In this document: positions 26,411 through 27,436 of the stretch, piece after piece
Numbering within the stretch: position 1 is the stretch's first letter
How the letters are laid out: the number at the start of each line of letters is the position of its first letter
Assembly (NCBI GenBank): GCA_000092065.1
Contig: CP000584.1
Length of the DNA stretch: 64,000 nucleotides
Reading direction: 5' to 3' (one strand)
Source of the DNA: Ostreococcus lucimarinus
Lineage: Eukaryota
Notes under the pieces: generated by a model
Database searches by the model: none
Seen by the model: the letters and a program-made list of their open reading frames with translations, nothing else
What the model was told of the DNA's origin: nothing
Program-made: the position numbers and the translations under genes

Positions 26411-27436
26411 ATGCCGCGCACCGCCGACGACGACGCGCGCGCGCTCGCGCATCGCGACGTCAACGCCGCGACGGAGACGAACGGAGACGCGATGTGCGAC
26501 GCCGCGATGAAACCGAACGACGAAAAGGACGCGCGCGACGACGACGCGGGCGCAGACGACGACGCGGGGATTCAAAATCAAAATCTGGCTGTTGACGACG
26601 CGTCGAAGGATGACGACGCGACGACGATGATCGACGCGAAGCGCGCGCGAGAAGAAACCGAGGAAGAGGCGAAAGACGCGCGGGGAAAGGCGAAATCGCG
26701 ACACGGGAAGGAACGCGCGGCGAGAGAGATGGATTTGCAGACGCTGCCAGAGGCGTTGGGAGAGTGGAAGACGAACGCGGAGCTCGAGTTGGGGAATTTG
26801 TGGACGAGACAGCGCTTGCGATTGTTGGATTGGTTCGAGACGAAGTCGGCGATTAATAAGTGCATCGTGTCGTGTCCGGCGTCGGCGTTGAGAGAGAAGA
26901 TGCGGGCGTTGAGAGACGACGGGGTGTACGGGAGTTCGATGATTCCGTATTTGCAACTGTTGCGAGACGTCTTCGACGAGACGGATCAGTACAAGGATGA
27001 TTTGGATGAGGAATTGGATTTTAATGATTTTTTCGACGACGACGACGACGAGTCTGAAGATGACGAATCTGAAGATGACGATTCCGAAGACGACGAATCT
27101 GAAGACTCAGCTGAGGAGATTCCGGTCGTCTCTCGCGCGCCTCGCGCCGAAGCCGCCGCCGAGCCTCCTCAACGCGCGGGCGCCTCTCGATCAGCGCCGA
27201 GCACTGAAGAGATGGACGAAATCAAGATCAAGTTTAGTAAATTCACCCAATTCCTCGGTCAATACTTCTCCGAGAAGCGTCTCGAGGTGGAGAACGTCGT
27301 CGAAATAGTCGATCACGCGGCCCGAGCCGGCTTCGACGACCCCCAAGAAGTGAACAAGTTTTTAGAAGTCATGCAAAAGCAGAACAAGATCATGTACGAC
27401 CAGTCCGAGTCTCAGTGGACGGTGTACATCTTGTAG
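26411..27436 (+). CDS. Acidic hypothetical protein ending in an MCM3-C-terminal-like winged helix
   Basis: ATG ORF of 341 aa. It has D/E/S runs (DDDDDESEDDESEDDDSEDDESEDS). The C-terminus FLEVMQKQNKIMYDQSESQWTVYIL-stop resembles the MCM3 tail ..[20 protein letters not shown]-stop. No AAA+/MCM core is present. Confidence 0.6.
   Translation: MPRTADDDARALAHRDVNAATETNGDAMCDAAMKPNDEKDARDDDAGADDDAGIQNQNLAVDDASKDDDATTMIDAKRAREETEEEAKDARGKAKSRHGKERAAREMDLQTLPEALGEWKTNAELELGNLWTRQRLRLLDWFETKSAINKCIVSCPASALREKMRALRDDGVYGSSMIPYLQLLRDVFDETDQYKDDLDEELDFNDFFDDDDDESEDDESEDDDSEDDESEDSAEEIPVVSRAPRAEAAAEPPQRAGASRSAPSTEEMDEIKIKFSKFTQFLGQYFSEKRLEVENVVEIVDHAARAGFDDPQEVNKFLEVMQKQNKIMYDQSESQWTVYIL

Follow-up and report, generated by a model that had tools for sequence, protein, structure and literature searches.

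The stretch of DNA analyzed here comprises 64,000 nucleotides of contig CP000584.1 from the green alga Ostreococcus lucimarinus CCE9901 (GenBank assembly GCA_000092065.1; referred to as the window, ~62% G+C). On its plus strand it contains an open reading frame (ORF) at 26411..27436, which encodes an acidic protein ending in a winged helix of the MCM3 type. We refer to the product as the stand-alone winged-helix domain (WHD) protein. An earlier reading of the letters (the original prediction) had noted the MCM3-like tail, acidic D/E/S runs and a unique middle region, and had joined the gene with the adjacent initiator gene into a replication-licensing pair. The letters of the ORF match this description in the C-terminal 70 residues, in the D/E/S run and in the middle segment LGNLWTRQRLRLLDWFETKSAINKCIVSCPA, the acidic runs being present as written. 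The product clusters with the entry XP_001417168.1 / A4RVM6, the exact sequence lying in the cluster of the NCBI entry. The gene and its parts are as follows (pLDDT, predicted local distance difference test of the AlphaFold2 (AF2) model; dN/dS, ratio of nonsynonymous to synonymous substitution rates; pI, isoelectric point):

26411..27436, plus strand: complete gene of the stand-alone MCM3-WHD protein, 341 aa plus stop, corresponding to O. lucimarinus XP_001417168.1 / A4RVM6, deposited as 'predicted protein'
26411..26722, plus strand: N-terminal region, aa 1-104, predicted to be disordered (pLDDT <50 for aa 1-98), acidic, with low column conservation and a dN/dS of ~0.6
26435..26464, plus strand: short conserved N-terminal motif, aa 9-18, ARALAHRDVN, from the alignment consensus; family pattern AL..V..N (aa 11-18)
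26639..26710, plus strand: basic patch, aa 77-100 (KRAREETEEEAKDARGKAKSRHGK), read from the sequence, with comparable KR..R ... K(R/K).K patches at the equivalent place in orthologues
26723..27022, plus strand: family-specific helical domain, aa 105-204, a four-helix bundle; conservation begins at aa 101 ('ERAPREM')
27023..27202, plus strand: acidic linker, aa 205-264, net charge -21, pLDDT <50, with conserved motifs in the family alignment
27203..27433, plus strand: C-terminal winged-helix domain, aa 265-341, homologue of the MCM3 WHD (Pfam PF23191, WH_MCM3_C), pLDDT ~90, net charge -6, pI 4.6

Judged by sequence profiles, the last ~75 residues of the protein are a true homologue of the C-terminal WHD of MCM3, the resemblance going far beyond chance. 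The Pfam model PF23191 matched aa 275-330 of the window protein with an E-value of 1.1e-5; the score of 26.0 bits falls one bit short of the curated gathering cut-off (27 bits). Among aligned family members, 13 of 13 matched the model (best E = 3.5e-8), and five Micromonas-type proteins exceeded the cut-off (P0098, 36.5 bits; P0095, 35.0; P0105, 29.0; P0096, 28.8; P0100, 28.7), covering positions 5-77 of the 77 profile positions and ending on the last residue. For the cluster representative P0001, which is 100% identical in the BLASTP alignment, the precomputed annotation lists PF23191.2. When the winged-helix profile of the family was compared to the Protein Data Bank (PDB), Xenopus MCM3 (residues 729-804 of 807, E = 0.012) was the sole near-significant match, a designed protein aside. 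A word-indexed protein search with the same profile returned fragments of the family itself and no MCM3. We therefore fetched MCM3 genes with a human MCM3 AAA+ core sequence that served as bait only; all conclusions are based on the retrieved sequences. From 80 MCM3-like metagenome loci obtained in this manner we drew 18 genuine MCM3 tails, to which hhalign aligned the family winged helix with a probability of 98.5% (E = 1.6e-15) over 65 columns reaching the last residue; the control alignment to MCM7-type tails of the same harvest gave a probability of 7.9%. Conversely, a hidden Markov model (HMM) of the family scored 24-43.5 bits on land-plant MCM3 proteins, always at the extreme C-terminus, and aligned residues 708-776 of Arabidopsis thaliana MCM3 over the whole domain (39.6 bits). 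The MCM3-type tail of the original prediction is thus borne out by Pfam, by hhalign, by the PDB profile match and by the family HMM on land-plant MCM3. In the AF2 model, the domain is arranged as H1-b1-H2-H3-b2-b3 (helices 265-289, 296-305 and 311-323; strands 293-295, 327-332 and 335-340; pLDDT ~90), and its last strand reads T337-V-Y339-I-L341. According to the alignment, Y339 and L341 match F806 and I808 of human MCM3. Because the winged helix is acidic, it is unlikely to bind DNA.

The AF2 model presents the remainder of the protein as a disordered N-terminus, a confident helical domain (~aa 105-200) with four main helices and a disordered acidic linker leading to the winged helix. Pfam detected no MCM_N, MCM_OB, MCM or MCM_lid match, in keeping with the absence of an MCM or AAA+ signature that had been described for this part. 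An exhaustive HMMER search with the helical domain against 1.84 billion representative proteins returned only 28 proteins, and all full-length proteins among these end in an MCM3-type winged helix. The middle region, which had been called unique, thus has relatives only within this small family; its profile had no match in the PDB, and its HMM scored at most 3.1 bits on ~120 MCM3 proteins. A full-length family profile matched the PDB only through its acidic run, to a non-conserved region of sigma-70, and this hit was discarded as junk. The linker holds a DFNDFF acidic-aromatic motif, SEDD repeats fitting the CK2 consensus and the conserved elements IPVVxR and GASRSAPS. As a whole, the protein carries a net charge of -47 (pI 4.2). 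The sequence of the basic patch at aa 77-100 resembles a bipartite nuclear-localisation signal. Between Ostreococcus clades, dN/dS amounts to ~0.2 for the helical domain and ~0.06 for the winged helix, compared to ~0.6 for the N-terminus, values which indicate that both folded domains are under purifying selection.

Members of the family come from O. lucimarinus, at least three further Ostreococcus clades, a Bathycoccus-like alga of ~49% G+C and Micromonas, the P0095 cluster containing M. pusilla CCMP1545 XP_003062068.1. The orthologues of Ostreococcus, the Bathycoccus-like alga and Micromonas all retain both folded domains. In a neighbour-joining tree of the ~70-aa winged helices, the stand-alone copies form one clade, whose internal order (Bathycoccus-like, Ostreococcus, Micromonas) is that of the species tree. 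This indicates that the copy arose once, at the base of the Mamiellales or earlier, and has been inherited vertically since. The same tree puts the stand-alone winged helices at mean distances of 0.83-0.86 to all MCM3 groups, so that no one MCM3 lineage stands out as the source of the copy. No relative was found among 2.9 million viral contigs, and a viral origin was rejected for this reason. A distant member of the family is encoded on a polyadenylated transcript. The gene is real, of nuclear type and inherited vertically within the mamiellophycean green algae. In the deposited NCBI model, translation begins at M33 (nt 26507) and yields 309 aa, as compared to the 341-aa ORF starting at 26411. 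Because the AL..V..N motif conserved among orthologues sits upstream of M33, the 341-aa ORF is the better model, and the deposited annotations, a 'predicted protein' with a truncated N-terminus, are open to improvement.

We also inspected the MCM3 proteins of the host and its relatives, recovered with a green-lineage MCM3 query taken from the harvested loci. O. lucimarinus MCM3 (707 aa; P0140 cluster, with XP_001416404.1) retains its own tail, which scores 28.4 bits on PF23191 and covers positions 4-77 of 77, and the tail of the M. pusilla cluster reaches 30.3 bits. A recognisable winged-helix tail is present in each of the MCM3 proteins of O. lucimarinus, O. tauri (P0137 cluster), O. mediterraneus (P0135) and M. 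pusilla, and all Ostreococcus MCM3s finish with a ...N.(V/I)(L/F)V.(D/E)(G/D/-)(I/T)VH(I/V)I strand. As the helicase keeps its tail, the stand-alone WHD represents an additional paralogous copy and not the tail of a split gene. In the precomputed Pfam annotation, PF23191 is assigned to nearly all listed land-plant MCM3s and to no Mamiellales-type MCM3, the tails of the Ostreococcus/Bathycoccus type being too diverged to receive the label. With the HMM of the stand-alone family, Mamiellales MCM3 tails score 7.5-25 bits as compared to the 24-43.5 bits of land-plant tails. The free copy has thus diverged less from canonical MCM3 tails than has the tail of the host's own MCM3. The host proteins also differ in the segment preceding the domain. 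MCM3s of the Ostreococcus/Bathycoccus type (including those of loci L035 and L036) have 107-116 aa between the lid motif 'AHAK' and their C-terminus, compared to a median of 161 aa (range 146-294) for 92 land-plant MCM3s, so that the linker between helicase and WHD is ~50 residues shorter, leaving roughly 15-20 residues in proteins of ~700 aa. In the M. pusilla cluster the distance is 134 aa, and in the related MCM3 P0130, which has an acidic linker, 182 aa.

The stand-alone WHD gene is flanked by the following elements:

24615..26342, plus strand: class I fumarate hydratase, upstream neighbour, an ORF of the window
27437..27526, no strand: spacer of 90 nt to the Cdc6-type gene, in which no E2F-like or other motif shared across Ostreococcus clades was found
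27527..30019, plus strand: MBD-MBD-AAA+-Cdc6_C initiator gene of the Cdc6 type, 830 aa, assigned from Pfam matches and given as context only

The 90-nt gap and the common orientation that had been described are confirmed, the stop codon ending at 27436 and the next ATG lying at 27527, both on the plus strand. The downstream product also carries the MBD expected of it, in the form of two N-terminal matches (Pfam MBD, E = 3.7e-16). It clusters with XP_001417169.1, 'cell division control protein 6', and among solved structures human CDC6 is closest to it (6.7e-50, vs 3.4e-43 for ORC1). At the position of human CDC6 F375, a residue reported to be critical for the WHD contact (PMC12933075), it has Leu. 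The deposited 442-aa NCBI model of this gene omits both MBD repeats; the combination of MBD, AAA+ and Cdc6 WHD is also called in other Ostreococcus clades. In the spacer between fumarase and the ATG of the stand-alone gene (26343-26410, 68 nt) there are one ACGCGT of the MluI type and an element resembling TCCCGCGC; other Ostreococcus clades do not have either of them at a conserved position. The order fumarase, stand-alone WHD gene, MBD-Cdc6 and Usp recurs in three other Ostreococcus clades, in which 8-10 consecutive genes are collinear. Outside the genus, the neighbours are a 703-aa protein without assignment and an oppositely oriented thioredoxin gene in Micromonas, genes without assignment with PheRS-beta nearby at a second, Micromonas-like locus, and a 1165-aa protein without Pfam match together with PheRS-beta in the Bathycoccus-like alga. 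The position beside Cdc6 thus looks like an incidental feature of Ostreococcus genome order.

What the protein may do is suggested by the partners of its homologue. It is through the MCM3 winged helix that ORC-Cdc6 first takes hold of the replicative helicase, and in human the domain is also a latch guarding the DNA gate (PMC5538431; PMC12933075). In yeast, the Mcm3 C-terminus is essential to recruit Cdt1/MCM2-7 to ORC/Cdc6, whose ATP hydrolysis it induces; it binds Cdc6 directly, and the WHD touches Cdc6 and Orc2 (PMC5538431). The docking of the MCM3 WHD on ORC2-Cdc6 takes place in the OCCM complex in both yeast and human. The human WHD uses I804, F806 and I808 of its last strand to dock on MCM2 and on ORC2-CDC6, and on the MCM2 ATPase lobe it acts as a 'safety latch' that is opened by ORC-CDC6 (PMC12933075). 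Closure of this latch requires a long linker; one of ~20 residues is too short, yet may permit ORC-CDC6 binding (PMC12933075). Since the MCM3 WHD is a docking module for these partners and the winged helix studied here is acidic, our favoured, still tentative, reading is that the stand-alone WHD protein binds ORC-Cdc6, or else MCM2, in trans and thereby modulates licensing. Its winged helix would occupy the MCM3-WHD site on the ORC2-Cdc6 surface of DNA-bound ORC-Cdc6, or the MCM2 ATPase lobe. The free domain could then compete with the MCM3 tail, restraining or timing the loading of MCM2-7, or it could serve as an adaptor, linking any partner of the four-helix domain to the licensing machinery. 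A broader proposal, which we consider plainly unlikely, is that the roles of the MCM3 tail, namely ORC-Cdc6 docking for helicase recruitment and latching of the MCM2-5 gate, have partly moved to a separate trans-acting licensing regulator that mimics or competes with this tail. A trans-acting WHD, if real, would allow the loading of MCM2-7 to be restrained or timed independently of geminin, and would explain the loss of ~50 linker residues and the divergence of the tail in Ostreococcus/Bathycoccus MCM3.

Several observations weigh against docking in trans. The human WHD showed no detectable binding to MCM2-7 in trans (PMC12933075), so that docking by a free WHD may be weak. At the position of the human interface residue I804, the Ostreococcus proteins have Thr or Ser (T337 in the window protein). 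A Foldseek search of the AF2 model against the PDB returned only generic winged helices, all with E >0.1, and as these hits were non-specific, the fold comparison is not discriminating: over residues ~270-341, similarity to MCM3 tails was found by profile, and structure search was not specific to MCM3. Profile searches with the four-helix domain yielded no functional clue. No Cdc6 gene is found near the stand-alone WHD gene at the Micromonas, Micromonas-like or Bathycoccus-like loci. Finally, a comparison of the sequences upstream of the stand-alone WHD and Cdc6 genes in four Ostreococcus clades, Micromonas and the Bathycoccus-like alga revealed no shared cell-cycle element (E2F-like or MluI-box), the short upstream regions containing scattered CG-rich matches, none of them positionally conserved. 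The main rival to trans docking, possible though on balance unlikely, is that the MCM3-derived winged helix has been repurposed as a generic protein-protein module in an unrelated nuclear role, for instance in an acidic histone or chromatin chaperone, a transcription factor or a ribosome-biogenesis factor. The extreme acidity of the protein, its CK2-type SEDD repeats and its acidic-aromatic motif are typical of chaperone-like or transactivation-like regions, and would suit such a role, as would the four-helix domain, rather than the winged helix, being the most conserved part, a duplication at least as old as the base of the Mamiellales and the lack of conserved linkage to replication genes. 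Repurposing has to be reconciled, however, with the strong purifying selection on the winged helix, and with its being nearer to canonical MCM3 tails than the host's MCM3 tail is, which suggests that the ancestral binding surface has been maintained.

A further explanation builds on the short linker of the host helicase. Here, a latch-type or other function that MCM3 has lost would be provided in trans by the free WHD, aided by its long acidic linker, with the four-helix domain anchoring it to the MCM ring. A linker of only ~15-20 residues in Ostreococcus/Bathycoccus MCM3 lies in the range reported as too short for latch closure (PMC12933075), and the stand-alone WHD fits land-plant MCM3 tails better than Mamiellales ones. 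We nevertheless hold this division of labour to be quite improbable. Micromonas has the stand-alone protein beside a longer MCM3 tail region, so the correlation with linker length is not strict; moreover, the human WHD-MCM2 contact is too weak in trans (PMC12933075), and MCM binding by the four-helix domain is hypothetical. Very improbable is the functional gene pair of the original prediction, in which the stand-alone WHD and MBD-Cdc6 genes would be co-regulated partners. Adjacency and shared orientation at 90 nt are real, the same order is found in three other Ostreococcus clades, and the yeast Mcm3 C-terminus does bind Cdc6, with the WHD touching Cdc6 and Orc2 (PMC5538431). But in Ostreococcus collinearity extends over the whole 8-10-gene block, which makes the adjacency uninformative. 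Gaps of 68-135 nt between genes are commonplace in so compact a genome, no promoter motif common to the two genes was found, and the stand-alone WHD gene has other neighbours in Micromonas and Bathycoccus-like algae. The pairing is confined to Ostreococcus and absent in every relative outside the genus; adjacency not being kept wherever the family occurs, synteny largely refutes the pair. The earlier description thus holds for an MCM3-type module detached from the MCM/AAA+ body and for the family-restricted middle region, but not for a licensing gene pair. A split MCM3, in which the helicase gene lost its tail to a separate gene, might be read from the missing PF23191 label on Mamiellales-type MCM3s, a label that nearly all listed land-plant MCM3s carry; it is hardly credible and was rejected, as the tails are present though diverged, including that of the 707-aa O. 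lucimarinus MCM3. We accord equally little probability to the idea that the likeness arose by chance, or that the domain is some generic winged helix, for instance a diverged form of the C-terminal domain of Cdt1. The sequence profiles respond specifically to MCM3 tails, as the contrast with MCM7-type tails illustrates, and chance was rejected on this basis. For the window protein and 8 distant members, Pfam gave no CDT1 or CDT1_C match at E <= 1, and no Cdt1 chain appeared in PDB profile searches at E <= 10, so Cdt1 identity was likewise rejected at the sequence level.

Compared to the WHD of MCM3, the stand-alone copy is homologous over the whole domain, sits at the extreme C-terminus behind an acidic disordered linker and has the same winged-helix topology; in its last strand, the aromatic residue and the aliphatic one at the very end are retained, and, like its counterpart, it is acidic and not of the DNA-binding type. 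Unlike MCM3, it lacks the MCM N-terminal, OB and AAA+ body and is joined to a lineage-specific four-helix bundle. It also differs from the MCM3 tail in forming a clade of its own, in coexisting with that tail in the same genome and in the replacement of I804 by Thr or Ser. Geminin, a coiled coil that binds Cdt1, is a licensing inhibitor that blocks a docking step. It has no sequence or fold relationship to the stand-alone WHD protein, for which an inhibitor role is hypothetical, and the two would have in common only the proposed logic of a small non-enzymatic protein occupying an interface for MCM2-7 loading. The C-terminal winged helix of Cdt1, its MCM6-binding domain, shows no sequence-profile similarity to the stand-alone WHD. 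The literature we consulted describes the MCM3 winged helix solely as the tail of MCM3, and searches with the accessions, with PF23191 and for Ostreococcus licensing factors returned no description of the protein. In databases, family members are labelled 'predicted' or 'hypothetical' protein. The match to PF23191 is not new to databases, because precomputed labels already flag some members; the family itself, its architecture, its distribution and its occurrence alongside an MCM3 tail that is diverged yet intact appear to be undescribed. The stand-alone copy shows that the MCM3 WHD can be selected outside the helicase, and a conserved free-standing WHD, combined with a long acidic tether and a four-helix domain, amounts to a natural separation-of-function experiment. 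The protein is also a candidate licensing regulator open to direct testing, in a lineage whose set of cell-cycle genes is strongly reduced and in which O. tauri is genetically tractable. If the domain was repurposed, it would be an example of exaptation of a replication-factor module.

A few further observations concern individual family members and the surrounding DNA. The two most distant members, P0102 and P0110, are encoded on short transcript-like contigs, one with a poly(A) run. P0102 (L087 122-1327), the most distant of all, has the four-helix domain twice and a lysine-rich instead of an acidic linker; its source has a G+C content of 39%, and its contig carries the poly(A) run. In P0013 (457 aa, on a 1.5-kb contig), RIO2-kinase domains (PF09202, PF01163) are joined to a segment that is 69% identical to part of the stand-alone WHD family, probably reflecting a mis-merged prediction on a short contig and not a true fusion. 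Upstream in the window, around the 5' end of the fumarase gene (23457-25138), long overlapping Arg/Ala-rich ORFs of up to 486 aa occur on both strands, a pattern typical of spurious ORFs in high-G+C DNA.

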